The notes: generated by a model not told the origin, from the letters alone. A DNA stretch of 59,983 nt from Thermoanaerobaculia bacterium (GCA_036385755.1 DASVJU010000202.1:1-59983); one strand, 5' to 3'. Positions 7,740 to 49,142 are shown, counted from the first letter of the stretch. A program made the numbers and translations.

Positions 7740-7740
7740 G

Positions 7741-29160: not shown

Positions 29161-29167
29161 GGTCCGG

Positions 29168-29791: not shown

Positions 29792-29797
29792 TTCGCC
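29641..29797. repeat. complete inverted-pair element spanning the leuS stop and lptE start
   Basis: Plus arm 29641-29704 (GA arm plus GATTTCTTTGAAAGGGAAAGAG), a 49-nt GC-rich interior, and minus arm 29754-29797 (reverse complement GAAGTGAGAAGAGAGATTTCGGACAAGGGAATTTCTTCGAA). Confidence 0.8.
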
Positions 29798-32358: not shown

Positions 32359-32395
32359 CGCAGCCGGCGAGTGTAAACGACCCGAAGGCCGCTCG

Positions 32396-33295
32396 TCAGC
32401 GCCGCGGGGGCGCCGCGAGAGCGCGGGGATCGAGGGGCGCGCCCTCGACGGCCTCCACGACGTTCGCGCCGCGCGGCCGATACAGGGTCAGGCCGCCCTC
32501 GGCCGTCTCGAGGACGGGCCGCTTCAACTCGGCCGAACGGTCCGCGACATCCACGTGAAAGCCCGCGGGCGGCTGCCGGTCCAGCGCGAGATGCCGTGCC
32601 GTTACCGTGTTCGCGAGGCCCCCGGGATCCGACGGGATCCAGCCCAGCCCGGGGACGAAGACCTCGATCCACCGATGACGAACGCCGCCGAGCTCCGGAT
32701 TGAATACGCTTCGGGATTCGGGGGTGAGCTCCCGGGCGCGCCGGGCGGCGAGGATGCCCGTGACCTGCCGGGCGGGAACCCCCGCCCGGAGGAGCAGCTC
32801 GGCCGCGAGGAGCGACCGCCCCACGCAGGAGCCCTGGCGGGCGCGGAGCGTGGCCGCAGCCGTCTCGGAAGATCCGTCGGGCAGCGCGTAGCGGATGCGG
32901 CGGGCCGTGAAGGCGATCACGCGCTCGACGGCTTCGAGAACCGTCTTCGTGTCTTTGAGAAGCCGCCGGGACAGTGAATCGAGCTCGGCATCCTCCGGGA
33001 GGGGATCCGCGAGCACGGCCCGCGCCTCGGTGGAAAGGGCTGCCGGTGAGGGAGGGAAGGCGGCATCCACGGTGAGGGGCGCAGCCGGAATCTCGACGCG
33101 CGCTTCCAGAGAACGCCCGTCCGGCGAGGAGAGCGCGATGCGATAGCCGGCTCCCTCGACCGGGCGCGCATAGCGCCAGGGCGCGGGCCCCTCGAGGCGA
33201 TAGCGGGCCCACTCTCCCGGAGACGGACCTTCCTGCGCCGCGGCCACGCCGGCACACGCGAGTGCGAAGGCGCAAAGCAACAAGCGGCGGCTCAT
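32396..33295 (-). CDS. secreted transglutaminase-like cysteine peptidase domain protein
   Basis: 299 aa with a signal peptide. Cys-His-Asp arrangement: QGSCVGRS ... HRWIEVF ... PSDP. Confidence 0.75.
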
Positions 33296-33732
33296 TCCGC
33301 GCCCTCTCCGGCGGGAACGCGCGGGCCGAACGTGGCGCGGCGGATGGCATCGAGCACGCCGTTCACGAACGGACCGGAGGACGGAGTCGAGAACTTCTTC
33401 GCGATCTCGACGGCCTCGTCGATGACCACGGCGTCCGGGATGTCCTCTTCGAAGAGAAGCTCATAGAGCGCGAGTCGCAGGAGGTTGCGGTCGACCGCCG
33501 CCATCCGGCCGAGCCTCCAGTGTTCGGACCGCTCGGACAGCTTCGCGTCCAATTCGTCGCGCCGTGCGAGCGTCCCCAGGACGAGGCGTTGGGCGTATTC
33601 CTGGACCTCGGGACGCGCAAGGACGTATTCCTCCGTCCGGACGAACATTTCCTCGGGCACTGTTCCCGCGAGGTCGTTCTGGTAGAGAAGCTGAAGAGCC
33701 AGCTCTCGAGACTTTCGCCGGCGGCCGCTCAC
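33292..33732 (-). CDS. nusB: transcription antitermination factor NusB
   Basis: 146 aa. RELALQLLYQ, DRNLLRLALYELLF, AVEIAKKF. Lies downstream of ribH, the classical operon arrangement. Confidence 0.9.
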   Translation of the reverse strand: MSGRRRKSRELALQLLYQNDLAGTVPEEMFVRTEEYVLARPEVQEYAQRLVLGTLARRDELDAKLSERSEHWRLGRMAAVDRNLLRLALYELLFEEDIPDAVVIDEAVEIAKKFSTPSSGPFVNGVLDAIRRATFGPRVPAGEGAE

Positions 33733-33754
33733 ACGCGTCCCGTCCGCCCGGCCG

Positions 33755-34252
33755 TCAGCGCGCGGATCGCGAAGACTTGGCCGGAGCCTTCTTCAGGTTC
33801 GCGCGGAGGTCGGCGGCCTCGACGGCGGCCATGGCCGCCTCGAAGCCCTTGTTTCCACCCTTGGCGCCGGAGCGCTCCAGCGCCTGCTCGAGCGTGTCGC
33901 AGGTGAGGACGCCGAAAGCGACGGGAAGATCGAGCTCGAGGGAGACCTGGAAGACGCCCTTGGCCGTCTCTCCCGCCACATACTCGAAATGCGGCGTGCC
34001 TCCGCGCACGACGGCGCCGAGCGCCACGAGCGCGTCGAACCTGCCCGAGCGCGCGAGGTCGCGGAGGGCGAGCGGGATCTCCCAGGCGCCCGGCGCGCGC
34101 ACGAGAACGACATCCTCGTCGGCGGCGCCGGTCCGGCGGAACGCATCGAGGGCGCCATCGACGAGGCGCGACACGACGAGGTCGTTCGTCCGCGCGGCGA
34201 CGATGCCGAAGCGGCGTCCTCTGGAGGAAAGGTGGCCTTCGATCACGTTCAT
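33755..34252 (-). CDS. ribH: 6,7-dimethyl-8-ribityllumazine synthase
   Basis: Track ORF trimmed to ATG 34252 (MNVIEGHL...). VRAPGAWEIPLA, GAVVRGGTPHFEYV. 165 aa. Confidence 0.9.
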   Translation of the reverse strand: MNVIEGHLSSRGRRFGIVAARTNDLVVSRLVDGALDAFRRTGAADEDVVLVRAPGAWEIPLALRDLARSGRFDALVALGAVVRGGTPHFEYVAGETAKGVFQVSLELDLPVAFGVLTCDTLEQALERSGAKGGNKGFEAAMAAVEAADLRANLKKAPAKSSRSAR

Positions 34253-34274
34253 GGGACCGGAGAGTGTACCAGCC

Positions 34275-35285
34275 TCAGCGGGGCAGGAGCTCGCGGACGC
34301 GCGCGTGGGGACCTTCGGAGCCGAAATTCTCGTGATAGCGCGCGACGAAGTCCGCGATCGCGTAGCGCGGGGGCTGCGGACCGAGGGCTTCGAGGGTGTA
34401 GACGGCGGCCACGCTCCCGACACGCCCCGCGACTTCCCACGGCAGCCCGTAGTGCCGGGCCGCGAGGAGTCCGCCCCGGAAGGCATCGCCCACGCCCGTC
34501 GGGTCCACCGCGGGACCGCGCAGGCGGGCGGGCGGGATCCGGAAGCTGTTCGCGCCCTCGTGAGCCTCGGGTTGTCCGGCCTGCAGGCTGATCGTGGAGC
34601 CTTCGGCGCCGCGCGTCACGATGAGGACGGGCACCTCCTCGAGCATCTGGGCCTCCGAAAGACCCGTCTTCTTTTCGATGACGCCGAACTCGTACTCGTT
34701 CGCGATCAGGAGCACTGCGCCCCTCAGTCCGGCGAGGAGGTCGCTGCCAGAGAGTCGCGCGACCTGCTGGCTCGGATCGTAGACATAGGCGATGTGCAGC
34801 TCGCGACACTCCTTCGCGTACTTCGCCATCGCTTCGGGGTCGTTCGGCGAGATGACGGCGAGGCTCACGGCGCTCAGGGAGAGATCGCGGAAGGAGAGCG
34901 TCGTCGCGCGCGCCATGGCCCCCGTGTAGAACGTCGCGATCTGGTTCTGGCTCTGGTCCGTCGAGACGAAGAACGAGGCCGTGTAGAGGTCGTCGCAGAT
35001 GTGGAGAGCCGACGTGTCCACGCCCTGCTCGGCCAGCCAGCGGCTGTAGTCGAGCGCGTCGACTCCCGCAGTCGCCATGATGACGGGCTTGAGGCCGAGG
35101 AGCGCGAGCGTGTAGGCGATGTTCGGGGCCACGCCGCCCCGAACTTTCCGCATCGAATCCACGAGAAAGGAGACGGAGAGGCGTTCCATGCGGTCGGGCA
35201 CGACGACGTCGAGGAACTTCCCCGGGAACGTCATGAGGTAGTCGTAGGCGACGGAACCCGTGACGACGATGCGGCGTGCGGTCAT
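34275..35285 (-). CDS. PfkB-family carbohydrate/nucleoside kinase
   Basis: Trimmed to ATG 35285 (MTARRIVVTGS...), preceded by GAAAGAGGG. PfkB signature DPTGVGDAFRGG near the C-terminus. 336 aa. Confidence 0.8.
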   Translation of the reverse strand: MTARRIVVTGSVAYDYLMTFPGKFLDVVVPDRMERLSVSFLVDSMRKVRGGVAPNIAYTLALLGLKPVIMATAGVDALDYSRWLAEQGVDTSALHICDDLYTASFFVSTDQSQNQIATFYTGAMARATTLSFRDLSLSAVSLAVISPNDPEAMAKYAKECRELHIAYVYDPSQQVARLSGSDLLAGLRGAVLLIANEYEFGVIEKKTGLSEAQMLEEVPVLIVTRGAEGSTISLQAGQPEAHEGANSFRIPPARLRGPAVDPTGVGDAFRGGLLAARHYGLPWEVAGRVGSVAAVYTLEALGPQPPRYAIADFVARYHENFGSEGPHARVRELLPR

Positions 35286-35319
35286 CTGCCCTCTTTCTTC
35301 ACTCTTCAATCGTGGTTCT

Positions 35320-36267
35320 TCAGTTCTTCAGGAACAGCGCCAGGCGCCTTGCCGCGGCGGGAGAAATGCGTTCTTTCGCCGTGAGGACGGCCGACGCGAG
35401 AGCGTCCGCGCAATCGCTCGGTCGATCGGGATCGAGATGCCGCACGGCATTCGCGAGGACGCGATTCGCGGTGCTCGCATTCTGCCTGAGGACGGCGAGG
35501 ACGGCCTCCACCGACACCGCGGCCTCCTCCTCGTGCCAGCAGTCATAGTCGGTGACGAGGGCCATGGAGGCGTAGCCGATTCCGGCCTCCCGGCAGAGCT
35601 TCGCTTCGGTGGCGTTCGTCATGCCGATCACATCGGCGCCCCACGAGCGGTAGAGGGACGACTCGGCCTTGGTGGAGAACTGCGGCCCCTCCATGCAGAC
35701 GTACGTCCCGCCCCGGTGGCACACGGCGCCCTCGGCTTTCGCGGCCGAAGCGAGCGCATCGAGGAGGACGGCCGAGACCGGGTGCGCGAACGAGACGTGC
35801 CCCACGCAACCGCCGCCGAAGAACGTCGAGACGCGGTGCTTCGCGAGGTCGATGAACTGGTCCGGAAGGACGATGTCGGTCGGCTTGTACGCCTCCTTCA
35901 TCGAGCCGCAGGCCGAAGCCGAGAGCAGCCATGAACAACCGAGTTTCCGGAAGCCCCAGATGTTCGCGCGGTAGTTCACCTCGGTGGGGAGGAACGAGTG
36001 GTGGCGCCCGTGCCGCGCGAGAAACGCGACGGGGACCGAAGAAAGAGTTCCGAGAAGGTAGGAGTCGGAGGGAGCGCCGAAGGGAGTGCGAAGCGCGACC
36101 TCGTCCGTGATCTTCAGTCCGGGAAGCGAATACAGGCCCGATCCACCGACGAGACCAATGCGACGGAGAAGCGAAGAAGTAGATTTCTTACTCTTACCCT
36201 TCAAAGAAATCTTCGTCTTCTCTTTCGCTCTTTCGTTTCTCCTCCGAGCAAGTTCTTCTTTCTTCAT
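35320..36267 (-). CDS. mtnP: S-methyl-5'-thioadenosine phosphorylase (PNP/MTAP family)
   Basis: Track ORF 35320..37179 trimmed to ATG 36267 (ATGA overlap). The conserved core starts at IGLVGGSGLY. Also GVCHRGGTYVCMEGPQFST and MTNATEAKLCREAG. The first ~36 codons are a repeat copy. An alternative TTG start lies at 36204. Confidence 0.85.
   Translation of the reverse strand: MKKEELARRRNERAKEKTKISLKGKSKKSTSSLLRRIGLVGGSGLYSLPGLKITDEVALRTPFGAPSDSYLLGTLSSVPVAFLARHGRHHSFLPTEVNYRANIWGFRKLGCSWLLSASACGSMKEAYKPTDIVLPDQFIDLAKHRVSTFFGGGCVGHVSFAHPVSAVLLDALASAAKAEGAVCHRGGTYVCMEGPQFSTKAESSLYRSWGADVIGMTNATEAKLCREAGIGYASMALVTDYDCWHEEEAAVSVEAVLAVLRQNASTANRVLANAVRHLDPDRPSDCADALASAVLTAKERISPAAARRLALFLKN
36165..36267. 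repeat. compact palindromic element forming the first ~34 codons of the MTAP gene
   Basis: The minus strand reads ATGAAGAAAGAAG...GAGAAGACGAAGATTTCTT-TGAAGGGTAAGAG-TAAGAAATCTACTTCTTCGCTTCTC. The two arms are self-complementary with a ~14-nt loop. Confidence 0.8.
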
Positions 36268-37208
36268 CTCCCGCGTCCCATCTCCTCGAGGATGTCGAGC
36301 GCGAGCTTCAGCGCCGCGCGGCCCGCCTCTCCGGTGACTTCCGGTTCGCTGCGCTCGGCGCAGGCCTTCAGGAACGCCGCATCCTCGGCGGTGAGGGCGT
36401 CTGCGGGCTCGACCGTCACGGGCCAGGGCACGATGCGCGGCGGGCCGCTCAGCCGGTCGAGACGGAAGGCCGTCACGTCGCGCTTCTGCGTGTCGATCGA
36501 AAAATACCAGTCGGGCTGGAAGAACCGGAACTTCCGGGTCTTCTCCTGGGAGACCCGCGAGGCCGTCAGGTTCGCCACGCAGCCGCCTTCGAACGACAGC
36601 CGCACCGATGCGATGTCGATCTTCTCGCTCAGGATCGGCACGCCGACCGCCCGGATTTCGACGACCGGCCGGCCCACGAGGTCGAGCGCGATGTCGAGGT
36701 CGTGCACGAGGAGGTCGAGGACCACGTCCACGTCGAGGGCTCGCGGCACGAACACCCCGAGGCGGTGCGCCTCGATGAACTTCACGTCGGTCACGAGCGG
36801 GCGCACGGCGACGACGGCCGGGTTGAAACGCTCGATGTGGCCCACCTGCAGGACGCGTCCCTTCGCCCTCGCGAGGGCCACGAGCCGGTCGGCCTCGGCG
36901 AGCGTCACAGTGATGGGCTTTTCGACCATCACGTCGGCGCCTCCGGCCAGGAGTTCCTCCGCCACCTCCGCGTGCGTGGAGGTCGGCGACGCGACGACGA
37001 CCGCGCGGGCGCCCGCGTCGAGAAGCTCCTTCACGGAGCGTCTCCTCACGAGGCCCTTGCTTCCGTACGCGGCCTCGATCGCCGCGGCCGCGGCGTCGTC
37101 CGCGTCGACGAAGCCCACCGGCTCGGAGCCGGCGAGCTCGGTCAGGATCCGAGCGTGGTGCCGGCCGAGATAGCCGCACCCGACGATGGCTGTCCGGATC
37201 CTCGTCAT
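36264..37208 (-). CDS. Gfo/Idh/MocA family oxidoreductase
   Basis: 314 aa. N-terminal Rossmann motif IRTAIVGCGYLGRHHA plus the family EKP motif (VMVEKPI). Confidence 0.85.
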   Translation of the reverse strand: MTRIRTAIVGCGYLGRHHARILTELAGSEPVGFVDADDAAAAAIEAAYGSKGLVRRRSVKELLDAGARAVVVASPTSTHAEVAEELLAGGADVMVEKPITVTLAEADRLVALARAKGRVLQVGHIERFNPAVVAVRPLVTDVKFIEAHRLGVFVPRALDVDVVLDLLVHDLDIALDLVGRPVVEIRAVGVPILSEKIDIASVRLSFEGGCVANLTASRVSQEKTRKFRFFQPDWYFSIDTQKRDVTAFRLDRLSGPPRIVPWPVTVEPADALTAEDAAFLKACAERSEPEVTGEAGRAALKLALDILEEMGRGR

Positions 37209-37255
37209 GCGGGCCGCAGTCTAAAGGATGGCATGCGGCGGCACGGCGGAGCGCT

Positions 37256-37699
37256 TCACGCGGCGACGCTTTCCTTGACCGTGAGCACCGGGCACGGCGC
37301 CGTGCAGACGAGGCGCCCGGCGACGCTTCCCATGACCATGCGCGAGACGCCCGTGCGCCCGTTCGTCCCCAGGACGAGCATGGTCGCGTGCGCCCGTTCG
37401 GCGGCCTCCGCGAGCGCGTCCTCCGGGGAGCCGGCGAGAAGCTCTGTTCGGGCCGGGACTCCCGCGCGATCGGCCCGGCGGCGCAGGGCCTCGAGCCGCA
37501 TGCCCTTTTCTTCGCGGATCCGGTTCTCCACCTCTCTCGCGATGTCGCCGACGCCGTAGCCGAGCACCCCGGGAGTGTCGATGACGTGCCCCACCACCAG
37601 CTCCGCGCCTCGCATCCTCGCCATCTCGAGCGCCACGTCGAACGCCCGCTCCGAAGCCGGCGAAAAGTCCGTCCCGACGTAAATCGTTCGTCCGGTCAT
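37256..37699 (-). CDS. universal stress protein (UspA family)
   Basis: Track ORF 37256..38950 trimmed to ATG 37699 (MTGRTIYVGTDFS...). C-terminal ATP motif GTNGRTGVSRMVMGSVA. 147 aa. Confidence 0.85.
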   Translation of the reverse strand: MTGRTIYVGTDFSPASERAFDVALEMARMRGAELVVGHVIDTPGVLGYGVGDIAREVENRIREEKGMRLEALRRRADRAGVPARTELLAGSPEDALAEAAERAHATMLVLGTNGRTGVSRMVMGSVAGRLVCTAPCPVLTVKESVAA

Positions 37700-37822
37700 A
37701 GGGACCTCCCCGGAAAATCCGTCCGGACCGAATTCCCCGAATGAAGTTCGCGCCACGCGTGCGCCGGCGACATGATCCATTTGAATCAAACGGTGCATCG
37801 TGCGGGGTGTAGATTCGCGCGC

Positions 37823-38803
37823 ATGAAGAAGACGATGCTCGCCCTGACGATGATCCTCCTCGCAGCGGGCCTGGCCGCCGCCGCCGATTCGAAAACGAAC
37901 GTCTTCGCACAGGAAGAGGGCTTCGTCGACGCGCACGGCGTCCTCGTCTACTGGAAGTCGATCGGGCGGGGCGCGCCCCTCTTCGTCGTGCATGGCGGTC
38001 CCGGCGCCTCGCACGACTACTTCCTCCCCCACCTCCTCCCGCTCGCGCGCACGAACCGGCTCGTCTTCATCGACGAGAGGGGATCGGGCCGGTCCGAGCG
38101 CCTTGAGGACCCGAAGCTCTACACCGTCGCCGCCATGGTCGAGGACATGGAAGCCGTCCGGAAGGCGCTCGGCCTCGGGAAGGTGAACCTCCTCGGCCAT
38201 TCGTTCGGCGGGGTCCTGGCGCAGGCGTACGCCTTCACGTACCCGCAGAACCTCTCGACCCTGATCCTTTGTTCGACGTTCCACACGACGAAGGCGATCA
38301 ACAAGGCCCTCGCCGACATGAAGGCCGCGATGGCCCCGGAGCTTCGCGCTCGGATCGATAAAATGGAGAAAGAGGGCCTCTACGGGAAGGGCCTGCCGTG
38401 GCAATGGGGCCGGTACCCGGACGAATACATGAAGGCCGCGTGGGCGGAGGGCTACTTCCCCTACCTTTACCAAAGCCGGCCCGACGCGAACTACGACCCG
38501 GCCCCTGGCCCCAACATGGGATGGGAGGTCTATCGCGAGATGTGGGGCTCCACGGGCGAGTACGTCGTGGACGGAAACCTCACCGGCCTCGACTACGCCG
38601 AGCAACTGAGAACAGTTCGCGTTCCGACTCTTGTGACCGTCGGCGATCACGACGAGAGCGCGCCTTGGATCGCCGGGGAGATGGCGAAGCTCGTGCCCGG
38701 CGCGACGCTCGTCGTCTTCCCGAAGAGCGGCCACATGACGTTCGTCGACCAGCCGGCGCTGTTCCGCAAGGTGGTCGACGATTTCGTTCACGGGCGGAAG
38801 TAG
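37823..38803 (+). CDS. secreted alpha/beta hydrolase (proline iminopeptidase-like)
   Basis: Trimmed to ATG 37823 ([16 protein letters not shown]... signal peptide). HGGPG oxyanion motif and nucleophile elbow GHSFGG. 326 aa. Confidence 0.8.
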
Positions 38804-38862
38804 CCGCGCGTCCCGCCGCCGGTTGCCGCGCGCGGAGCGACCGCGTAACCTCCGCGGCTCAC

Positions 38863-41823
38863 ATGAGCGGACGCGACTGGAAATCCACTCTCCTCCTCCC
38901 GAAGACGGAGTTCCCCATGCGGGCGGACCTCCCGAAGCGGGAGCCCGCACGCCTCGCGCGCTGGCGGGACGAAGACCTCTACGGCCGCATCCGCGCCGCG
39001 CGCAAAGGCGCCCCCCGATTCCTCCTGCACGACGGGCCGCCCTACGCGAACGGCCGGATCCACATGGGGACGGCGATGAACAAGATCCTCAAGGATCTCG
39101 TCGTCCGCAGCAAGACGCTGGCCGGTTTCGATGCGCCTTACGTGCCGGGGTGGGACTGTCACGGCCTGCCCATCGAACTCAAGGTCGACAAGGAGCTGGG
39201 GCCGAAACGGCGCGAGATGACGGACGTCTCGTTCCGGGACGCCTGCCGCGCCTACGCCGAGAAGTGGATCGACGTCCAGCGGACCGACTTCATGCGCCTC
39301 GGCGTCCTCGGGGCGTGGCAGGCGCCGTACCGGACGATGGACTTCTCTTACCAGTCCGAAATCGCCCGCGCGTTCGGCCAGTTCGTGGAGAACGGCCTCG
39401 TCTCTTTCGGTTTCAAGGCCGTCCTCTGGTGCGTCCACGACCGCACGGCTCTCGCCGAGGCGGAGATCGAGTACGAGGACAAGACGGACTGGTCGATCTA
39501 CGTGGCGATGCCGATAAGAGTGGACGACGCGGCGCAATCCGTCTGGGATCCGGCGCCTCTTGGGATCGATTCGATCTATGCCGTGATCTGGACGACTACG
39601 CCGTGGACCTTGCCCGCGAATCGGGCGATTTCCCTCGGGGCGAACATCGAATACATTCTTCTTAGAAAGGAAGAGGGAGCGCGAGACGCGTATCTGGTCG
39701 CCGAAGCGCTGGTGCCGCAGGTGACGGCCGCGCTCGGCTGGACGCGCGCCATCCCCCTTCCCCTTTCTAGGAAAAGCGGCCGTGACATCGCCAACAGGCT
39801 GCTGAAACTGCGCTACGCCCGCCCCTTCGCGTCCGACCCATTCGACAATTTTGGTTTCCTTCTCGGCGAGCACGTCTCGACTTCGGACGGCACCGGTCTC
39901 GTTCACACGGCTCCCGGCCATGGCCGCGACGATTACGAGGTTGTGAGGCGCGCCGGATTCAAGGTCGACGACCCGGCCCTCTGCCCGGTGGACGAGGGCG
40001 GGTACTACGACGCGAACGCTCCCGAGCAACTTCGCGGGAAGCGCGTCGTGACGCCGAAGACGCCGGGAGACGACGCGAGTGGGGCGGTTCTCGAGGCGTT
40101 GAAAGCTGGAGACGCTTCGGGCGCTCTTCTCCTCCATTCGCAGAAATCTCCTCATTCGTATCCCCATTGCTGGCGCTGCAAGAACCCGGTCATCTTCCGG
40201 GCGACGCACCAGTGGTTCATCGACCTCGGAGCCCTGCGCGATCGCGCGATGGCGGAGATCCGAGGCCGCGTCGCGTGGATCCCGTCCTACAGCGAGAACC
40301 GCATCGGCGCGATGGTCGACAACCGCCTCGAGTGGACGATCTCCCGGCAACGCCGCTGGGGCTCGCCGATCACGTTCCTGCGCTGCGTCGACTGCAAGGA
40401 GAAGGGCGTCGTGAGCCACTTCCCCAGAGTCGAGGGGAACGTGGGAGAAAAGGAGAAGAGAGAAAGAGAGGATTTCTTTGAAAGGGTAAGAGAGGCTTTC
40501 CGTGAACACGGAGCGAACGCCTGGTACGACGATGCTTTCCCCCCGTCTTACTTTCTAAGCAAATCTTCCTCTTCTTCTTCCTCTCCAGCCTCCTGTTCTT
40601 CCTGCGGCGGAACGAACTTCGAGAAGCTGAAGGACATCCTGGACGTGTGGTTCGACTCCGGCGTTTCGCACGCGGCGGTCCTCCGCTCCGGCGACTACGG
40701 CCTCGCGGATCCTTACACGGCGCAGCCGCCCGTCCCGGTCATGTACCTCGAGGGCCACGACCAGCACCGCGGATGGTTTCAGTCCTCGCTCCTCACGTCC
40801 GTCGCGCTGACCGGCCGAGCGCCGTACGACACCGTCCTGACCCATGGTTTCGTCGTCGCGGGCGACGGCCACAAAATGTCGAAGTCCCTCGGCAATACGA
40901 TCGAGCCGCAGGACCTCCTCAAGACCGACGGCGCGGACGTGATCCGCCTCTGGGTCGCCTCGCTCGACTACACGAACGACGACCCGCTTTCGAAGGAGAT
41001 CCTCCAGCGCACCGCCGAGGCCTACCGGAAGATCCGGAACACGGCACGCTTCCTCCTGTCGAACCTCTTCGATTTCGACCCGGCAACGGATGCCGTGCCG
41101 GAAGCAAGGCTCGAACCGCTCGACCGCTGGGTGCTCGACGCCGCCGCGCGCTTCGCGGTCGAGGCTCGGGACGCATACGCGCGCTACGAGTTCCACGCCG
41201 TCGCGCGCCGGCTGCTCGACCTCGTCACGACCGATCTCTCGGCGTTCTGGTGTGATGCGCGCAAGGACGCTTTCTACGTCCTCGCGGCGAACGATCCCGT
41301 GCGCCGGTCGGCGCAGACGGCGGCCTGGAGGCTCGTCGAGACGATCGCGATCGCGCTCTCCCCGATCTGCCCATTTACGGCGGAAGAGATATGGGAATCG
41401 ATACCGGGGCATGCGACGGACCCCTCTTCGCTGGTCCTGAAGAGCTGGGACGAACTCAAGGTTCCGGGGATTTCTTCGAATGAGAAAGAGGCTTGGGGCC
41501 ACGTCCTCGCTCTTCGAGCGGAATTTCTGCAGGCCCTCGAGCCGCTGCGCCGCGACGGGTCGGTGGGCTCCGCCGCGCAAGCTGAGGCAGTGGTCGGACG
41601 CGCCGTCGGGCTCGACGAGGCGCTCCGGACTCTTTCCCTTTCAGAAGAAAAACTCGCCGAGGTGCTCGCCGTACCGTCCGTCATGCGGGATGTCGGCGCC
41701 GACGGAATTCTCGTCCGCCCCGCCGAAGGCGCGAAGTGCCCGCGGTGCTGGCAGGTCCGCAAGGACGTGGAACCCGGAGACGACGGCCTCTGCGCGCGCT
41801 GCCGCGCGGTCGTCGGCGAGTAG
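38863..41823 (+). CDS. ileS: isoleucine--tRNA ligase (type 1)
   Basis: Track ORF trimmed to ATG 38863 ([21 protein letters not shown]...). [11 protein letters not shown] (HIGH-type), [17 protein letters not shown], and a C-terminal zinc knuckle CPRCW...CARC. 986 aa. Confidence 0.95.
39649..39776. repeat. inward-facing pair in ileS (pair 1)
   Basis: Plus core ATTCTTCTTAGAAAGGAAGAGGGAG (39655-39679). Minus core at 39751-39776 (reverse complement GCTTTTCCTAGAAAGGGGAAGGGGGAT). 70-nt GC-rich interior. Confidence 0.65.
40444..40586. repeat. inward-facing pair in ileS (pair 2)
   Basis: Plus arm GGAGAAAAGGAGAAGAGAGAAAGAGAGGATTTCTTTGAAAGGGTAAGAGAGG (the 16-mer at 40471-40486 is identical to 29681-29696). 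Minus arm 40546-40586 (reverse complement GGAGAGGAAGAAGAAGAGGAAGATTTGCTTAGAAAGTAAGAC). About 50-nt interior. Confidence 0.8.
41468..41655. repeat. inward-facing pair in ileS (pair 3, more diverged)
   Basis: Plus core GGATTTCTTCGAATGAGAAAGAGG (41468-41491). Minus core 41630-41655 (reverse complement GAGTTTTTCTTCTGAAAGGGAAAGAG). 138-nt interior. Confidence 0.5.
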
Positions 41824-41833
41824 AATCCCCCTC

Positions 41834-42334
41834 GTGCCGCGCCGGCTCGTCTATTTCGCGATTTCTCTCGCCGTCGTGGCTCTGGACCAGCTCACGAAGG
41901 CGATCGTGTCCGCGCGCATCCCGCTGCACGACACGATCCCGGTGATTCGGGGGTTCTTCGACCTGACGCACGTGAAGAACACGGGCGCGGCATTCGGCAT
42001 CTTCGCGTCCTTCAGCTCGCCCGCGCGCGCGATGATCCTGACGCTCGTCGCCAGCGGCGTCTTTCTCGCCGTCCTCGCCTGGTCGCTGTCGTCGCCTGTG
42101 ACGCTCACGCGGCTCCAGACGGCGCTCGCGCTCGTTCTCGGCGGGGCCGTCGGGAACCTGATCGACCGCGTGCGCTTTGATTCCGTCACGGATTTCCTGC
42201 GCTTTTACGTTGCCAGCTGGGAGTGGCCGTCGTTCAACGTAGCCGACAGCGCGATCAGCGTGGGCGTCGTCCTTCTCGCCTGGGATATCTGGCGGCATCC
42301 GGAGAAACAGCCCGAGACATGCACCCAGAACTGA
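41834..42334 (+). CDS. lspA: lipoprotein signal peptidase II
   Basis: GTG 41834. LDQLTKAIV, VKNTGAAFGI, GGAVGNLIDR, FNVADSAI. 166 aa. Classical ileS-lspA linkage. Confidence 0.9.
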   Translation: MPRRLVYFAISLAVVALDQLTKAIVSARIPLHDTIPVIRGFFDLTHVKNTGAAFGIFASFSSPARAMILTLVASGVFLAVLAWSLSSPVTLTRLQTALALVLGGAVGNLIDRVRFDSVTDFLRFYVASWEWPSFNVADSAISVGVVLLAWDIWRHPEKQPETCTQN

Positions 42335-43110
42335 TCCACATCGGCTCTTTCGCGCTGCCGAGCTACGGCCTGATGATGGCCCTCGGCTTCCTCGCGGCTC
42401 TGTGGCTCCTGAGGAGGCGGGCGCCCGCATTCGGGATCGCGTCGGACGCCGCGTCGGACGTCGGAATCTGGCTTCTTCTGTCGGGTCTCGTGGGCGCGAA
42501 ACTCCTGCTCGTCATCGTCGAGTGGCCGCACTACGTGTCGTCCTGGGACGGTCTCAAGGATCTCGCGCGCGCAGGCGGCGTTTTCTACGGCGGATTGATC
42601 GGTGCAACGGTGGGCACGGCGATCCTCCTTCGGAAACGCCGGATTCCGTTCTTCACATTCGCCGACGGCGCGGCGCCGTCGATTGCGCTTGGGCAGTGCC
42701 TGGGCCGCGTGGGCTGCCTCCTCGCGGGCTGCTGCTGGGGCCGCCAGTGCGCGCTGCCCTGGGCGATCACGTTCTCCGACCCGCGGGCGAACGAGAACGT
42801 CGGCGTCCCCCTGGGAATTCCGCTTCATCCCACTCAGATCTACGAGGCCGTCGGCACGCTCGTTCTCTGCATCCTCCTCCTCGTCTTCGAGCGCCGCCGG
42901 TACTCCGGGGAGACATTCGTGCGGTACCTCTTCGGGTACGCCGTCCTGCGTTTCACGATCGAGATCTTCCGCGGCGACCCGCGCGGCTCGGTCTTCGGCG
43001 CGATGTCGACTTCGCAGTTCATCGCGCTCGGCCTCGCCGCAGCGGCGGTCGCGATCTGGGCCCTGCGCCGCAAGACGGCGCCTGCGCCGGCTGCCGTTCG
43101 AGCGGCGTGA
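42319..43110 (+). CDS. lgt: prolipoprotein diacylglyceryl transferase
   Basis: Trimmed to ATG 42319 (MHPELIHIGSFALPSYGLMMALGF...). Motifs GRVGCLLAGCCWG and HPTQIYE. 263 aa. Overlaps lspA by 16 nt. Confidence 0.9.
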   Translation: MHPELIHIGSFALPSYGLMMALGFLAALWLLRRRAPAFGIASDAASDVGIWLLLSGLVGAKLLLVIVEWPHYVSSWDGLKDLARAGGVFYGGLIGATVGTAILLRKRRIPFFTFADGAAPSIALGQCLGRVGCLLAGCCWGRQCALPWAITFSDPRANENVGVPLGIPLHPTQIYEAVGTLVLCILLLVFERRRYSGETFVRYLFGYAVLRFTIEIFRGDPRGSVFGAMSTSQFIALGLAAAAVAIWALRRKTAPAPAAVRAA

Positions 43111-44099
43111 GCGACGCGCCCCGGCCCCGGCGCACGTTCCGCGCCGACCGTGGTGACGCCGGCGAGCGCATCGACCGCGTCCTGCTCCGGCACCTCAACG
43201 ACCTGCCCGAAGCCTCGCGAACGAAGATCCAGGAGTGGATCGATGGCGGATTCGTCTCCATCGAAGGGAGAAGATCGAAGAAGAGCTCGGAGAAGGTGAA
43301 GACGGGAGAGGAGATCGCCGTCGAGCTGCCTCCGCCTCCGGCCCCTCGCCCCGACATCCTGGCTCAGGACATCCCTCTCTCCGTCCTCTTCGAAGACTCC
43401 GAGATCCTCGTCCTCGACAAGCCCCCAGGCCTCGTCGTGCACCCGGCCGTCGGCCATCGGGACGGGACGCTCGTGAATGCGCTCCTCCACCGCTCCAAGG
43501 ACTGGGCGGGCCCCGCCGACCGCCCCGGGCTCGTTCACCGGCTCGACAAGGACACGTCGGGGGTGCTCGTGATCGCGAAGACCGAGCGGGCCATGGCGGT
43601 GCTCGGGAAGGCGATGAAAGAGAGATCCTTGGAAAAGGAATACCTGGCGGTCGTCTACGGACACCCACCCGTTCGCAAGGGAAAAATCGAGATGGGCATC
43701 TTGCGCGACACGAAGGACCGCAAGCGCATGGCCGCCTCGAAGACCGAGGGGCGGCCGTCGACCACCTTCTATGAAATCCTCTCCGAATCTTCCGGCCTTC
43801 TCTCGGGTCTCTCGCTCCTGAAATGCCGGCTCGTCACCGGCCGGACGCACCAGATCCGCGTGCACCTCAAGGCGATGAACCTGCCCATCGTCGGCGATCC
43901 CGTCTACGGCTCGCCCCGCTGGAAGGGGTTGAAGGACGGCGCGCTCGTGGAGGCCTGCAAGGCTTTTCCGCGCCAGGCCCTCCACGCCTGGCGCCTCGGG
44001 ATTCGCCACCCGGCGACGGGCGAGGCAATGACGTTCACGGCTCCCGTGCCGGGAGATCTAAAGGCCCTGTTTCTGGCCGCTCGGATACCCGTGCCGTAA
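43107..44099 (+). CDS. rluD: RluA-family 23S rRNA pseudouridine synthase (RluD-like, S4 domain plus catalytic domain)
   Basis: GTG 43107 (GTGA overlap). Catalytic motif HRLDKDTSGVLVIAK. Also KEYLAVVYG and GRTHQIRVHL. 330 aa. Confidence 0.85.
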   Translation: MSDAPRPRRTFRADRGDAGERIDRVLLRHLNDLPEASRTKIQEWIDGGFVSIEGRRSKKSSEKVKTGEEIAVELPPPPAPRPDILAQDIPLSVLFEDSEILVLDKPPGLVVHPAVGHRDGTLVNALLHRSKDWAGPADRPGLVHRLDKDTSGVLVIAKTERAMAVLGKAMKERSLEKEYLAVVYGHPPVRKGKIEMGILRDTKDRKRMAASKTEGRPSTTFYEILSESSGLLSGLSLLKCRLVTGRTHQIRVHLKAMNLPIVGDPVYGSPRWKGLKDGALVEACKAFPRQALHAWRLGIRHPATGEAMTFTAPVPGDLKALFLAARIPVP

Positions 44100-44130
44100 A
44101 CCGATCTCCCCCGAGAGACGTCAATACGTC

Positions 44131-45765
44131 ATGCGAATCGCTCTCCCTGGCGCGGCCACCTTCGTCGCGTCGGCCCTGATGGCTTCTTCCGCCCGGGCCG
44201 GCCTCGTCGAGCACGATGTGCTGCCTCAGCAGACCGACCCCGCCGTCAGCACGAATCTGGATTTCCACGTCGCGTACGTCGACACGTCGGCCCCCTCGAA
44301 CGGCCGCCTCTTCGTTTTCCTGCCCGGCACACAAGGGCTTCCCCGCTTCTACAAGCTCATCGTGCAGGAAGCCGCGAAGAGCGGATTCCTCGCGATCGGC
44401 CTGACGTATCCGAACGACAAGGCCGAGGGAGTCGTCTGCGCGGGCTCCCCGGACGTCGACTGCGCGGAGAAGTTTCACGTCGAGACCCTCACGGGACTGG
44501 ACGTCAGCACGCTCATCTCGGTCGCACCCGCCGACGCGATCGAGAACAGGCTCCTGAAGGCGCTGCAATTTCTCGCGAACCGGTATCCGTCCGAGGGCTG
44601 GGGGGACTTCGTGGACGGGAACGTCCTCCGGTGGGGAAAGATCCGCGTGGGCGGCCACTCTCAGGGCGGCGGGCACGCGGCGTTCATGGGGAAGGACCTC
44701 GTTCTCGACGGCATCACCTGCCTCTCGAGCCCGGACGACTGGGACACCCGGCTCAACGCGCCTTCGGCCTGGATCGCGAAGCCCCGGGCGACGCCTGCTT
44801 CCCGCATGTGGGGCTTCGGGAACGTGAACGACGATCTGGTGCCGTTCGCGCACGCGACAGCCAACTGGAACCTCTTCGGAATGGGCGCCTTCGGCGCGAC
44901 GTCCTCGGTGGATTCGGGGAGCGCTCCGTGGGGAAACGGATCGCACGAATTGTCGACCGCTCTGAACATAGGCACGTCGTCCCACAACATGCCTGCGGTC
45001 GACGTTGCGACGCCGAAGGCCGCGGACGGGAGCGCCTTTTTCGCACCCGTCTGGCGCCAGATCGCCTTCACCGTCGCGGCCGAAACGACGTGGATCCTGC
45101 CGTCTTCGGCGCACGCAGCCGGAGCGGGAGGCGCGTTCTACACGACGGATCTCCTCGTCGCGAATCCGGACGCGCTCGACACAACGTTCGTTCTGAAGTT
45201 CCTCGGGCACGACAGGGACGGGCGGACCGGAACCGAAAGGGCCTTCACGCTCGGCGCTGGCCGGTCGGTGACGTACACGGACGTCCTCGGGAGCGTCTTC
45301 GGCGCCTCGAACGACTACGGCCCGATTCAGATTCGCTCGACCACCTCGTCCCTTCTCGTCTCGTCAGAGACCTCGACCCCGAGCGCGTCCGGAGGCACGT
45401 TCGGCCAGTCGGTCCCTGCCTTCGCGGCAGCGGATCTGATCGGGATCGTCCCGAGGACCATTCTCGGGGCGCGCGAGGATGCCTCGTTCCGCACGAATCT
45501 CATTCTCGCGAACGCGACGGAGGCGGGCATCGACGTCCTCGTGCGCTGGTACGACGTGAACGGGGCTCTCGCCGCCTCTCGCACCGCGACGCTCGCACCC
45601 CTCGGCATGACACAGATGACGCGCGTCCTGGCGACGCTCGGGGTGTCGCCGGCCGCCGGCGGACGGCTCACGGTCTGTTCGGCGACGGCCGGGGTCTCCT
45701 TCGCGGCGTACGCGTCGGTCATCGACGAGGCGACAAACGACCCGCGCACACTTCTGCCCCGGTGA
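44131..45765 (+). CDS. secreted two-domain protein: N-terminal alpha/beta-hydrolase-like (GHSQGG) plus an unknown C-terminal beta-rich domain
   Basis: 544 aa. Signal peptide MRIALPGAATFVASALMASSARA. Nucleophile-elbow-like RVGGHSQGGGHAAFMG. The C-terminal ~240 aa match no family I recognise. Confidence 0.65.
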   Translation: MRIALPGAATFVASALMASSARAGLVEHDVLPQQTDPAVSTNLDFHVAYVDTSAPSNGRLFVFLPGTQGLPRFYKLIVQEAAKSGFLAIGLTYPNDKAEGVVCAGSPDVDCAEKFHVETLTGLDVSTLISVAPADAIENRLLKALQFLANRYPSEGWGDFVDGNVLRWGKIRVGGHSQGGGHAAFMGKDLVLDGITCLSSPDDWDTRLNAPSAWIAKPRATPASRMWGFGNVNDDLVPFAHATANWNLFGMGAFGATSSVDSGSAPWGNGSHELSTALNIGTSSHNMPAVDVATPKAADGSAFFAPVWRQIAFTVAAETTWILPSSAHAAGAGGAFYTTDLLVANPDALDTTFVLKFLGHDRDGRTGTERAFTLGAGRSVTYTDVLGSVFGASNDYGPIQIRSTTSSLLVSSETSTPSASGGTFGQSVPAFAAADLIGIVPRTILGAREDASFRTNLILANATEAGIDVLVRWYDVNGALAASRTATLAPLGMTQMTRVLATLGVSPAAGGRLTVCSATAGVSFAAYASVIDEATNDPRTLLPR

Positions 45766-45810
45766 TGGGAAGATGCCTCGAGGCTCCCGGCCTTTGCTAA
45801 TCTGACCCTC

Positions 45811-47034
45811 ATGAGCGTCATTCGAACCTCCGCCCGGGTCTCCGCGCGCGGACTCGCCATGCCGGCCTCCCCTATCCGCAAGCTCATGCCTCTCGCGGAC
45901 GAGGCGAAGAAGCGCGGCGTGAAGGTCTATCACCTCAACATCGGCCAGCCCGACCTCGAGACGCCGGAACCCATGCGCCGTCGACTGGCGACGCTGAAGG
46001 ACAAGACCTACGCGTACTCGCCCTCGAACGGGACGCCGGAATACCTCGATTTTCTCCACGCGTACTACGCGAAGCTCGGCCTCGCGCTGAAAAGGGGCGA
46101 GATCCTCGCGACGACGGGCGGAAGCGAGGCGCTCCTGTTCGCTTTCATGGCCTGCGCCGATGCGGGGTCAGAGATCCTGACGGTGGAGCCGCTCTACACG
46201 AACTACCGCTCTTTCGCGGCGATGGCGGGGCTCAGCCTTCGCCCGATCGTGACGCGCGGCGAGGACGGTTTCCACCTTCCGGCGCGCACGGAATGGGAAA
46301 AGGCGCTGACGCCGAAGACGCGGCTCGTCCTCCTCTGCAACCCGAACAATCCGACCGGAACCGTCTACTCGAAGGACGAGATCGTGCGCGCGGCGGAGTT
46401 CTGCCGCGACCACGGCCTCTTCTTCGTGTCCGACGAGGTCTACCGGGAGTTTCTCTACGACGGCCGGGAATCCGTCAGCGCGCTCTCGCTCGCGGGATTC
46501 GAGGAGCAGGTCGTCGTGGTGGATTCCCTCTCCAAGCGGTTCTCGGCCTGCGGCATCCGGCTCGGCGCGCTCGTCACGCGCAATGCCGACGTCGCGGGGG
46601 CGTGCAACCGCATGGCCCAGGGCCGCCTCTCGCCGCCGGGACTGGCCCAGCACATCGCGCCCGGAGCGCTCGAGCTGGGGCCCGAGTACTACCAGGGCAT
46701 CATCCGCGAGTATCAGAAGAGGCGCGACACGCTCTACGACGGGCTCTCGAAGATCCCCGGCGTCTTCCTCCGCAAGCCCGAAGGGGCCTTTTACTTCGTG
46801 GCGCGCGTGCCCGTTCAGGACAGCGACGATTTCGCGGCGTGGCTCCTTTCGGACTTCGCTCTCGACGGGAAGACCGTCATGGTCGCCCCCGCGAGCGGTT
46901 TCTACGTCACCCAGGGCCTGGGGCTCGACGAGATCCGCATCGCGTACGTCCTGAAAGAGGACGACCTGAACGCGGCCGTCGAAATTCTCGCGCAGGCGAT
47001 TCCGGCGTACCGAAAAGCAAGAGGCCTCGACTGA
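45811..47034 (+). CDS. pyridoxal-phosphate-dependent aminotransferase, class I (aspartate/aromatic type)
   Basis: 407 aa. NPNNPTG, DEVYREF, and PLP-Lys motif SLSKRFSACGIRLG. Confidence 0.9.
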   Translation: MSVIRTSARVSARGLAMPASPIRKLMPLADEAKKRGVKVYHLNIGQPDLETPEPMRRRLATLKDKTYAYSPSNGTPEYLDFLHAYYAKLGLALKRGEILATTGGSEALLFAFMACADAGSEILTVEPLYTNYRSFAAMAGLSLRPIVTRGEDGFHLPARTEWEKALTPKTRLVLLCNPNNPTGTVYSKDEIVRAAEFCRDHGLFFVSDEVYREFLYDGRESVSALSLAGFEEQVVVVDSLSKRFSACGIRLGALVTRNADVAGACNRMAQGRLSPPGLAQHIAPGALELGPEYYQGIIREYQKRRDTLYDGLSKIPGVFLRKPEGAFYFVARVPVQDSDDFAAWLLSDFALDGKTVMVAPASGFYVTQGLGLDEIRIAYVLKEDDLNAAVEILAQAIPAYRKARGLD

Positions 47035-47090
47035 TCGAGGCCTCCGCTCCCAATACCTTCTAAGAAAAACCTACTTCTTCTTTTTCTTCG
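47007..47090. repeat. inverted-pair element at the convergent aminotransferase/ALDH junction, enclosing the terminator hairpin
   Basis: Plus arm GTACCGAAAAGCAAGAGG (47007-47024). Minus arm 47045-47090 (reverse complement CGAAGAAAAAGAAGAAGTAGGTTTTTCTTAGAAGGTATTGGGAGCG). Both stop codons lie inside the element. Confidence 0.6.
47021..47044. terminator. perfect 10-bp GC-rich hairpin between convergent genes (candidate bidirectional terminator)
   Basis: GAGGCCTCGA (47021-47030), loop CTGA, TCGAGGCCTC (47035-47044). The aminotransferase TGA lies in the loop. The hairpin is flanked by the two arms of a repeat element. No clean U-tract. Confidence 0.5.
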
Positions 47091-48609
47091 CGGACGCCTC
47101 GCCCGCGGGCACGTCGATCTGCGCCTTCTGGATCGTCCCGGAGTAGTCGACGTAGATCGACTTCCACTCGCTGAAGACGTCGAGAGCGGCCAGTCCCGCC
47201 TCGCGGTGGCCGTTCCCCGTCTTCTTCGTGCCGCCGAACGGCAGGTGCGTCTCGGCGCCGATCGTCGGGAGATTCACGTAGAAGATTCCGGCTTCGAGGT
47301 CGCGCATCGCCACGAAGGCCTTGTTCACGTCCTGAGTGAAAATCGCCGACGACAGGCCGTATTCGCTGTCGTTCGCGACGTCGATCGCCTCTTCGAGGGA
47401 CGAGACCGGGAGGATGGACGTGACGGGGCCGAAGATCTCCTCGCGCGCCACCCGCATCCCGCGGTGGCAGTCGGCGAAGACGGTCGGGGCCACGAACCAG
47501 CCCTTCTCGTGGGCCTTGCCCGCGAGCCGCCGGCCGCCGGCGACGCACTTCGCGCCTTCGGCCTTGCCGATCGAAATGTAGTCGAGAACCGTGTCGAGCT
47601 GGCTCTCGTTGATGGAGGGGCCCATCTCGTTCTTTTCGTCGAGTCCGCTGCCGACCCGAAGGGCGTTCGCGCGCTCGGCGAGCATCGCGGTGAACTTCCG
47701 CGCGACCTTCTTGTGCACGAGGAGCCGGGAGGACGCGGTGCAACGCTGTCCGCTCGTCCCGAAGGCGCCCCAGATCGACCCGTCGACGGCCAGCTCCAGG
47801 TTTGCGTCGTCCATCACGATGATCGGGTTCTTGCCGCCCATCTCGAGGTGGACGTGCTTGAAGGAAGGGGCGCACGCCTCGTTGATCGTCTGCCCGACCG
47901 ACGTCGAGCCGGTGAACGACACGACCTTGACGCGCGGGTCCTTGAGAAGCGGCATCCCCACCTTCGAGCCGCTGCCGGAGACCACGTTGAAGACGCCGGG
48001 GGGAAGGCCTGCATCCTCGAGCGCGCGCGCGAAATTCACGACCGAGAGAGGCGTGTCCGTGGCGGGTTTGATGACGACGGTGTTGCCGCAGACGAGGGCC
48101 GCGGTCGTCTTCCAGGCGGGAATCGCCATCGGGAAGTTCCACGGCGTGATGAACGCGCAGACCCCGATCGGCGACCGCACGGACATCGCGAACTTGTTCG
48201 GCAGCTCCGACGGCGTCGTCTGCCCGTGCAGGCGGCGGCCCTCGCCGCCCATCAGGAACGCCATGTCGATGGCTTCCTGGACGTCTCCGCGGGCCTCTTT
48301 GAGGACCTTCCCCATCTCGCGCGTCATGTCGCGGGCGTACTGCTCCTTGCGGTCGCGCAGGATCTCGCCGAGGCGGTACAGGATCTCGCCGCGCTGCGGG
48401 CCCGGCACGAGCCGCCATGATCTGTAGGCTTCGGCCGCGACGTCGACGGCGTCCTTCGCGTCGCGCTCGTCCGAGTCGGCGAACCGGCCGATCAGGTCGG
48501 TGACGTCCGCCGGGTTGCGGTTCTCGAACGTCCGGCCCGAGCGGGCCGGCGTCCATTTTCCAGCGATCCAGTTTCCGTGAACGGGTGCGGACGAGGCCGA
48601 CGAAACCAT
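47071..48609 (-). CDS. aldehyde dehydrogenase family protein
   Basis: 512 aa. [27 protein letters not shown], catalytic-Cys segment [21 protein letters not shown]. The C-terminal AKKKKK and the TAG stop are encoded by a repeat arm. Confidence 0.9.
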
Positions 48610-48634
48610 GTGATGCGTTCCTTTCGCTTGCGGG

Positions 48635-49033: not shown

Positions 49034-49142
49034 CGCGCGCCCGGAGTCTAACCGGCGGGAGGCGAAGCCGCCACCGGCCGGAAAAGAGAAGGGCCGGGCG
49101 GGAGTTCCCGCCCGGCCCATGGGTCACGAGGGAACGAGGCCG

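Follow-up and report, generated by a model that had tools for sequence, protein, structure and literature searches.

The 60-kb window analysed here is a stretch of high-GC chromosomal DNA (59,983 nucleotides, 65-72% GC) from a Thermoanaerobaculia bacterium (GCA_036385755.1, DASVJU010000202.1). It carries the isoleucyl-tRNA synthetase gene ileS (38863-41823, plus strand), which is identified by its open reading frame (ORF) and translation, a structure match and homologues, and which encodes a protein of 986 aa. Seven short repeat arms lie inside this coding sequence, six of them arranged as three inward-facing pairs, and they belong to a family of repeats dispersed in the window and in related lineages. 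The catalytic motifs (HMGT and KMSKS) and the zinc-binding C-terminal Cys motifs of the enzyme are retained intact. IleS aligns over its full length with the solved IleRS structures 8c9e and 1ffy (E = 3.6e-203 for 8c9e). Homologues were found at 47-92% identity; those that are named come from Thermoanaerobaculia or other Acidobacteriota, and the nearest relatives (92% to ~60% identity) are metagenome bins.

The paired arms coincide with low-GC patches (39639-39679, 40442-40500 with 40541-40585, and 41466-41495 with 41627-41657) in a background of 65-67% GC. A preliminary description of this DNA had reported three inward-facing repeat pairs in ileS, and their coordinates and peptides are confirmed here. 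The 5' arm of pair 1 is of the purine type (39656-39680, plus strand; conserved-codon cluster 39649-39672) and encodes ILLRKEEGA, with native codons recoded and the length unchanged. Its 3' arm is of the pyrimidine type (39752-39776, plus strand; conserved-codon clusters 39754-39759 and 39763-39774) and encodes IPLPLSRKS, again at unchanged length. The 5' arm of pair 2 (40444-40497, plus strand; profile match of 26 bits and conserved-codon cluster 40462-40491) consists of a purine tract followed by GATTTCTTTGAAAGGGTAAGAG; six extra codons lie upstream and the FF..V residues are native. The interior of this pair (40498-40540, plus strand) is a native IleS segment, homologous in all outgroups and in the IleRS entries of the PDB. 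The 3' arm (40541-40592, minus strand; profile match of 22 bits on that strand) is a reverse-complement copy encoding PPSYFLSK together with a poly-Ser pyrimidine tract of variable length. Pair 3 comprises a 5' arm encoding GISSNEKEA (41466-41492, plus strand; conserved-codon cluster 41470-41487) and a 3' arm encoding RTLSLSEEK (41628-41654, minus strand; conserved-codon cluster 41629-41649), both without change in length.

Two results go beyond the preliminary description: the membership of the ileS pairs in a dispersed repeat family, and a seventh arm in the gene. This arm (40124-40160, minus strand) is solo and degenerate, has the pyrimidine orientation on the sense strand and is supported by weak profile and pattern matches at 40134-40157. 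At the orthologous position the lineages L003 (11251-11266) and L097 (10896-10915) have a clear copy, AGATTTCTTCGAAAGG. The same two lineages carry a 13-aa insertion in IleS (NPAEASSFRGRPEK) just upstream of this site.

The repeat consensus, derived from an alignment of six arms from different loci, is AAGGAAGAAGAAGATTTCTTTGAAAGGGAAAGAG. The unit is laid out as a purine tract of variable length, an 11-nt palindromic core (TTTCTTTGAAA) and the sequence GGGWAAGAG. The only palindrome of the consensus is TTTC-TTT-GAAA, with a 4-bp stem, and GTAG is present in two copies only (36163 and 47054). The outer ends of the arms are purine or pyrimidine tracts of varying length and the conserved part is internal. 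The spacers between paired arms, 14-285 nt long, are locus-specific native coding sequence or unrelated GC-rich hairpins. Units occur inside and between genes, mostly as inverted doublets with the purine arm 5' on either strand.

Taken on its own, each ileS inverted repeat is no better than a GC-rich chance repeat. A repeat finder recovers pair 1 as arms of 19 nt, 79% complementary and 77 nt apart, and the window holds 121 inverted repeats of comparable size, many of which are GC-rich chance repeats. The motif itself is another matter. Its 15-nt core, GATTTCTTNGAARGG, is found 13 times in the window with at most two mismatches, against an expectation of 0.60 +/- 0.78 (100 shuffles, none of which reached 13), and the arm profile finds ~19 copies at ~10 loci. 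When a partner was defined as a match of at least 5 bits within 400 nt, 19 of 31 strong arms from the window and its relatives had an inward-facing partner and three an outward-facing one; these polarity counts, like the conservation counts below, take in orthologous sites and are not independent.

The family is confined to a clade. Profile matches occur at 0.7-4.4 per 10 kb in every locus of the clade (lineages with at least ~75% IleS identity), and there are none in seven outgroup loci from more distant Thermoanaerobaculia and Acidobacteriota. Eight distant controls gave one weak match in total, and viral contigs scanned for the repeat core gave none. Density within the window is uneven: about ten sites fall in the 18 kb around leuS and ileS (29000-47000), and no profile match falls in 1-15000, 16000-25000 or 48000-59000.

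To follow the origin of the arms, the codons of ileS were aligned across nine lineages (75-92% IleS identity), with DNA taken from the encoding contigs and from one metagenome pattern scan. That scan, run with an ileS-specific degenerate pattern, yielded the seven loci that were used. A search of a species-representative genome collection with ileS peptide patterns returned, among the matches listed, mostly distant IleS sequences and one useful locus, L006. The accompanying protein alignment holds 36 IleS homologues; L005, L006 and L008 served as motif-free outgroups. A plain scan of synonymous differences is confounded by the strong third-position GC bias, as conserved two-fold GC-ending codons dominate it, so columns with a conserved A or T at the third position were counted instead. 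Only 38 of the 1044 codon columns end in A or T with no more than two lineages as exceptions, and 30 of these 38 form six clusters that coincide exactly with the six paired arms. Ordinary GC-rich codons stand at the homologous positions of the outgroups. Motif, rare codons, polarity and distribution together establish the ileS pairs as real and beyond chance.

Most of this sequence has been written over existing codons. Pairs 1 and 3 show no indel relative to the three motif-free outgroups. The left arm of pair 1 encodes VLLRRES just as the sister lineage L004 does, and the two differ only synonymously (CTC to CTT, CGA to AGA, CGG to AGG and GAG to GAA). All IleS sequences, the solved structures included, have the FF..V residues and the interior FREHGA[DN]AWYDD of pair 2; what is extra there is limited to the six codons on the left, which are common to L004 and L098, and to the poly-Ser tract on the right, which ranges from 0 to 13 codons. 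The net change in length is thus zero for pairs 1 and 3 and about +14 aa for pair 2. These alignments indicate that the ileS arms were written over native codons mostly by substitution, with pair 2 also gaining a few inserted codons and a Ser tract prone to slippage. They bear out the suggestion of the preliminary description that the arms flank or recode native codons rather than delimit a simple insertion, and that the interior of pair 2 and part of its left arm (DFFERV) are native-like.

The nucleotide sequence of the arms is well maintained. Lineages as distant as 75% IleS identity have an identical 24-nt core in the left arm of pair 2, and independent assemblies (from JGI, ENA and NCBI) carry the same arms at the orthologous positions. 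Within pair 2 the outgroup residues VVAV have become VRE[AT], spelling GTAAGAGAG, and the motif thereby overrides amino-acid conservation in IleS. The poly-Ser pyrimidine tract is absent from L001, L089 and L091 (L093 and L095 are near-identical to L091), all of which keep the purine arm. Outside the active lineages the arms have decayed independently: L096 has lost both arms of pair 3, L098 keeps only the right arm and L004 only part of the left arm. Wherever a lineage has the family at other loci, the nucleotide sequence of each arm is kept; where the family is absent, the arms decay. The preliminary description had also allowed for coincidence, in the form of ancestral residues with ordinary GC-rich codons in sister genomes and no shared nucleotide motif. 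GC-rich codons are indeed found at the ancestral positions in the outgroups, but the sister lineages share the low-GC codons and the nucleotide motif recurs elsewhere, and the resemblance survives this comparison.

The arms occupy the least conserved columns of IleS (conservation 0.47 versus 0.68, p = 3e-8, among 12 motif-free homologues), and the pair 2 interior has a conservation of 0.74 versus a gene mean of 0.66 in the same homologues. Because the arms overwrite weakly constrained segments, they come to bracket conserved native ones. Their position in the fold was read from an AlphaFold model of IleRS with a mean predicted local distance difference test (pLDDT) score of 80.8, surface exposure being judged from secondary structure and conservation. 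Pair 1 lies in the editing domain, at a strand end and beta-turn (5' arm) and in a loop. In pair 2 the 5' arm falls in a long helix (529-549) and the Ser loop is predicted to be disordered, with pLDDT below 50 at residues 568-573. Pair 3 lies at helix ends in the C-terminal junction region. As far as the model can tell, the arms sit at weakly constrained sites of IleS where the fold tolerates them.

Copies beyond ileS have the same character. The leuS gene (29791-32487, minus strand) has the same architecture: at 31060-31255 (minus strand; profile and alignments) two tandem purine arms and a pyrimidine arm that recodes native residues enclose a native interior. The tandem purine arms are a true insertion in a variable loop, ranging from 0 to 57 aa among lineages, with the Ser-rich arm downstream. 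A hairpin of ~150 nt with its own GC-rich interior occupies the leuS/lptE junction (29650-29800, minus strand; comparison with relatives). The junction is filled in the window and in L003 (2280-2470) and L097 (1700-1900), and it is empty in L004 (1900-2000), where the leuS stop overlaps the lptE start by 4 nt. Between the empty and filled states ~45 nt have been replaced by ~170 nt, with no flanking direct repeat at this single old site. In this hairpin the pyrimidine (3') arm now supplies the codons for the hydrophobic core of LptE's lipoprotein signal peptide, as far as the lipobox: repeat DNA has been recruited as LptE coding sequence.

At the junction between the genes for a GFO-family oxidoreductase and a purine nucleoside phosphorylase (PNP)-family enzyme there is a hairpin with a 14-nt loop (36163-36245, minus strand; repeat finder, profile and relatives). 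The same orthologous site exists in three forms by lineage: a solo arm in L003 (8820-8920), L097 (8280-8400) and L007 (8930-9000), the hairpin with the 14-nt loop in the window and L001, and a form with a 110-nt GC-rich interior in L002 (7720-7930). Gene callers carry the phosphorylase N-terminus through this repeat, and its length varies from 285 to 354 aa across records. Taken together, the alignments of these loci show a family that evidently both inserts and overwrites, and that turns over.

A further pair brackets ~230 nt of native N-terminal coding sequence in a chorismate-binding (PabB/TrpE-like) enzyme (15090-15412, minus strand), the widest spacing seen, and another lies in LigD, in the linker that joins its phosphoesterase domain to the primase-polymerase domain (59555-59695, plus strand). 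Solo arms are found at the 3' end of an aldehyde dehydrogenase gene (47045-47095, minus strand; orthologous copies in L001, L002 and L007) and at the 5' end of tolB, in the interval that follows the upstream Tol gene (25905-25975, plus strand; purine arm). Other copies lie in non-coding junctions. The ileS and leuS copies share one reading frame (DFFERVRE in ileS; DLLRK and DFLRR in leuS). The GFO/PNP and tolB copies, whose translation is uncertain since the true start codons may lie downstream, would read KISLKGKS. This other-frame reading, if the GFO/PNP copy is translated, and the copies in non-coding junctions argue that the motif works at the nucleotide rather than the peptide level.

Several further observations were made at these and neighbouring loci. 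A TTG within the repeat core of the tolB copy is in frame with the TolB signal peptide (MKGKGREEKNCFRGSVALLAAAALL...) and follows the purine tract at a Shine-Dalgarno-like spacing, and the unit might supply a start site. The aldehyde dehydrogenase copy encodes a C-terminal AKKKKK tail and is directly followed by a GC-rich terminator-like hairpin. A possible weak pair lies in the pseudouridine synthase gene, with a purine patch at 43612-43646 and a pyrimidine patch at 43764-43793 that contains GATTTCATAGAAGGT (minus strand). In L003 an extra ORF of 174 aa with no recorded Pfam match (1242-1838) separates rpsT from lptE; before it, right after the rpsT stop, comes a solo purine arm, and at its far end a core-like sequence, TTTCTAGAA, overlaps the lptE stop.

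The remainder of the window is an ordinary core-genome neighbourhood, as annotated with Pfam for ~30 ORFs. It includes Tol-Pal genes, lptE, leuS, a purine nucleoside phosphorylase family gene, an aldehyde dehydrogenase, acetyl-CoA synthetase and ligD; lspA, lgt and a pseudouridine synthase gene lie 3' of ileS and were assigned via synteny with relatives. No transposase, recombinase or reverse transcriptase was found by Pfam in the 60-kb window. Very long stop-free antisense ORFs are present, for example one of 588 codons opposite ileS (38791-40554, minus strand) and another at 35998-37173 (plus strand). Such frames are usual in high-GC DNA, so open frames after a hypothetical inversion of the bracketed segments are poor evidence.

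The inward arrangement of the arms suggests hairpins in the mRNA, and the preliminary description had proposed that each pair forms a long imperfect stem. A selected stem could control mRNA stability or processing (e.g. by RNase III), hide a C-rich Rho-loading stretch or pace ribosomes, and the motif would then be the site of an RNA-binding factor. Minimum-free-energy folds do pair the arms in all three ileS pairs, the inward polarity is fixed, and the junction copies lie where terminator or processing hairpins would be. The stems are thus thermodynamically predicted, but as an explanation they fare poorly in tests that rest on eight window pairs and 7-10 lineages. When the folds were compared with dinucleotide shuffles, a control that had been suggested at the outset, the z-scores were -1.49, -0.82 and -1.26 for pairs 1, 2 and 3 and were not significant, a measure that is uninformative here because the GC-rich interiors fold well in any order. 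Pair 1 retains a closing stem of 15 pairs with no compensatory changes. Pair 2 has a consensus stem of 40 pairs, 90% of whose cells are paired among seven lineages, and its seven double changes are a weak excess over the expected 3.9 +/- 1.4 (20 of 500 shuffles reach seven); these changes fall in tracts of low complexity, in which every run of purines can pair with every run of pyrimidines. Left arms pair equally well with the right arms of other loci, the cognate partner ranking 1-6 of 8 in duplex energy, and these cross-locus energies reveal locus-specific complementarity in none except pair 1. When the arms of the eight window pairs were aligned by a strand-symmetric criterion, the stem mismatches comprised 29 transversions, 8 sense-strand G·U and 11 A·C, with neither a wobble excess nor a strand asymmetry. 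Solo arms are conserved among lineages, the pair 2 purine arm outlives its pyrimidine tract in L001, L089 and L091, and an Rfam scan of 35500-42500 gave three sub-threshold chance matches, none at the arms. It is the sequence of each arm, together with the inward arrangement, that is conserved; hairpin pairing appears not to be the selected property, and we consider selected mRNA hairpins unlikely.

Accumulation by point substitution together with biased recombination or selection, as in a molecular drive of the uptake-signal type or at sites for a chromosome-organising protein, would replace codons without changing length. DNA uptake sequences and uptake signal sequences are found in coding regions and, in terminators, as inverted pairs. 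The arms of the present family arise by substitution in weakly constrained codons, and the motif is lineage-specific, over-represented, found in genes and at gene ends, and decays in family-free lineages, all of which fits such a drive. Yet fixed-polarity inverted doublets prevail even inside genes, the units are long (~35-50 nt) with slippage-prone tracts, true insertions reach 57 aa and hairpins ~150 nt, and the density is uneven, so that this mechanism is distinctly improbable. A smaller probability still attaches to intragenic invertons, in which a clade-specific invertase would flip the bracketed segment and reversibly yield a recoded or inactive IleRS. Many genes do have segments of 14-285 nt flanked by inverted repeats with a shared motif, the arrangement seen in invertase regulons; recoding invertons inside genes have been documented (PMC10028968), and inversion within the arms would leave ileS free of stops for all three pairs. 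However, antisense frames free of stops are to be expected in DNA of 67% GC, and symmetry keeps the arms themselves open. The inverted products would put Arg-rich sequence in place of highly conserved residues of an essential single-copy enzyme, and the native orientation is seen in 14 of the 14 motif-bearing ileS sequences read (~12 of them distinct). Moreover, a 14-nt spacing and palindromic GC-rich interiors would make inversion pointless or sterically unlikely, and the 60-kb window contains no recombinase gene.

We regard it as slightly less probable again that the arms are conserved clusters of rare A/T-ending codons, which slow translation for co-translational folding of IleRS while the repeats are incidental. 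The arms are the only places in ileS with conserved rare A/T-ending codons and they adjoin secondary-structure boundaries, but the motif recurs on both strands, in non-coding junctions and, if the GFO/PNP copy is translated, in another frame, and its presence outside coding frames already goes most of the way to refuting this reading. The arms are also complementary pairs of fixed polarity, with amino acids altered to fit the motif. An origin by chance or as an assembly artefact is rejected: single inverted repeats are no stronger than many GC-rich chance repeats, but the excess of the core over shuffles and the recurrence of the arms in the independent assemblies stand against it. Inteins, introns, diversity-generating retroelements and frameshifting were also rejected, given the continuous frame and native interiors. 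Resemblances to the 16S 3' end and Shine-Dalgarno sequence, to CodY, parS and IHF sites and to CRISPR repeat ends were dropped as coincidences, which we take to stem from purine-richness or partial matching.

The explanation that we favour, with moderate confidence, is that the three ileS pairs are six in-frame copies, joined by the solo seventh, of a lineage-specific, non-autonomous dispersed repeat. It would resemble the REPINs, which are inverted doublets of repetitive extragenic palindromic (REP) units, and the Rickettsia palindromic elements (RPEs), and it would be recognised arm by arm and spread by overwriting. This builds on the family membership, clade restriction, nucleotide-level maintenance, overwrite-type end states, turnover and decay documented above. 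A trans-acting factor confined to the clade would recognise each arm singly by its sequence, most likely in the form of DNA. Candidates are a domesticated HUH (tyrosine) transposase of the kind associated with REPs (RAYT) or with terminal inverted repeats (TIRYT), or another DNA-binding protein. New copies may arise by copy-and-overwrite, through ectopic gene conversion or template switching rather than cut-and-paste, at sites already resembling the motif, such as TTCTTCGAG, which encodes FFE. Hairpin potential would be a by-product of the doublet arrangement. Intragenic copies would persist because they are tolerated on the protein surface, with upkeep where the family is active and decay elsewhere.

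Several observations weigh against this explanation. No trans-acting gene was found by Pfam among the housekeeping genes of the 60-kb window. Orthologous copies, non-coding ones included, are conserved over a deep divergence, which is more than a purely selfish element would require and suggests a function that is host-level or addictive. No genome-specific variants common to paralogous copies were seen, so that ongoing gene conversion is unsupported. The overwriting is deduced from end states, with no recent gain among the close relatives compared. The unit has neither the classical REP stem-loop of 5-13 bp nor its GTAG or CGTC tag, and no target-site duplication was seen. Recognition at the DNA rather than the RNA level is suggested solely by the negative RNA-structure tests and their small samples. 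A second reading, which we hold only tentatively although it seems possible, is that a non-insertional motif of ~35 nt, mobile or maintained by the host, has been copied over, or selected into, similar sites that already existed, in inward-facing pairs and by a clade-specific factor, recoding even conserved residues of IleRS and LeuS and supplying the LptE signal peptide, and that purifying selection keeps each copy for a chromosome- or transcript-level function of the pairs that is new to bacteria.

In-gene repeats of bacteria are usually interpreted as insertions that are tolerated. In the present case the motif is written over native codons of essential aminoacyl-tRNA synthetases, and its nucleotide sequence is kept across lineages that otherwise vary freely at synonymous sites. 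If either the overwrite mechanism or a host function is true, this would be a clear case of a DNA- or RNA-level signal shaping the protein evolution of core genes. A dispersed repeat of the REPIN and RPE kind would extend that concept to uncultured Acidobacteriota (Thermoanaerobaculia), and would serve both as a marker of the lineage and as raw material for new coding sequence, as in the LptE signal-peptide core. There are practical consequences as well: repeat patches can mislead gene callers, with N-terminal extensions at the PNP, LptE and TolB starts, and they can mislead scans for selection or horizontal transfer in high-GC genomes.

Among known systems, the RPEs are in-frame palindromic repeats inside unrelated housekeeping genes (Ogata et al. 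2000, as summarised in PMC10969869). They are whole insertions of ~100-150 bp, and each family encodes a conserved peptide (PMC10969869). The ileS arms are similar in that they lie in frame within a gene, leave the product intact, are retained in orthologues across the lineage and occupy sites tolerated by the fold. Unlike RPEs, the interiors in ileS are native, the arms are mostly substitutions and the motif also occurs in non-coding DNA. Whole-element insertion, a defining feature of RPEs, is found only at the leuS/lptE junction and partly in leuS, and not in ileS.

REP units are stem-loops of 5-13 bp tagged with GTAG or CGTC; intragenic REP dimers encoding 20-30 aa are described, and head-to-head dimers predominate (PMC3733652). 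An Acidobacteria-specific group of TIR-associated tyrosine transposases has been reported, some with dispersed families of TIR repeats (PMC3733652). REPINs are long-lived inverted REP doublets (PMC3116915, PMC3337134). The present family shares with REPs and REPINs its short units, its inverted doublets of preferred polarity with the potential for a larger hairpin, and its lineage-specific, vertically inherited and long-lived nature. It differs in that most copies in the window are intragenic, in ORFs with Pfam domains (ileS, leuS, the chorismate-binding enzyme and LigD), and in that the unit has only a 4-bp mini-palindrome in place of a tagged stem-loop. The spacer, moreover, is locus-specific native DNA of 14-285 nt and not part of a mobile unit. 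No gene for a RAYT-like tyrosine (HUH) transposase was found in the 60-kb window.

Bacterial MITEs (miniature transposable elements with inverted repeats) such as Correia/NEMIS, ERIC and BOX (PMC10969869) are likewise non-autonomous, bounded by inverted repeats, dispersed and occasionally fused in frame to ORFs. In contrast to MITEs, the family shows no target-site duplication (at one old site), and its copies have no internal sequence in common. Conservation lies at the inner end of the arm, the outer end being a variable low-complexity tract, whereas the terminal inverted repeats of MITEs are conserved at their outer ends and related to an autonomous insertion sequence. The small dispersed repeats of Nostoc are said to be very short and to occur inside conserved sequence, where the two arms of a hairpin are often complementary copies, and they seem to replace sequence rather than lengthen it. 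They belong to a different phylum and have a different motif. DNA uptake sequences, too, are over-represented lineage-specific motifs that enter coding regions by substitution and form inverted pairs at gene ends. The units described here differ from them in being longer, in forming mostly fixed-polarity pairs even within genes, and in sometimes being true insertions. With intragenic invertons (PMC10028968) the family shares in-gene inverted repeats whose inversion would recode the protein without a frameshift. Unlike invertons, it shows no flipped orientation in the sequences read and no invertase in the window, its spacing can be too short, and its segments are conserved in essential enzymes. 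Each known class is thus matched in part and departed from in part, be it in insertion, extragenic site, tagged stem-loop, spacer or target duplication, and the ileS repeats are best regarded as related to these classes rather than as members of any of them.

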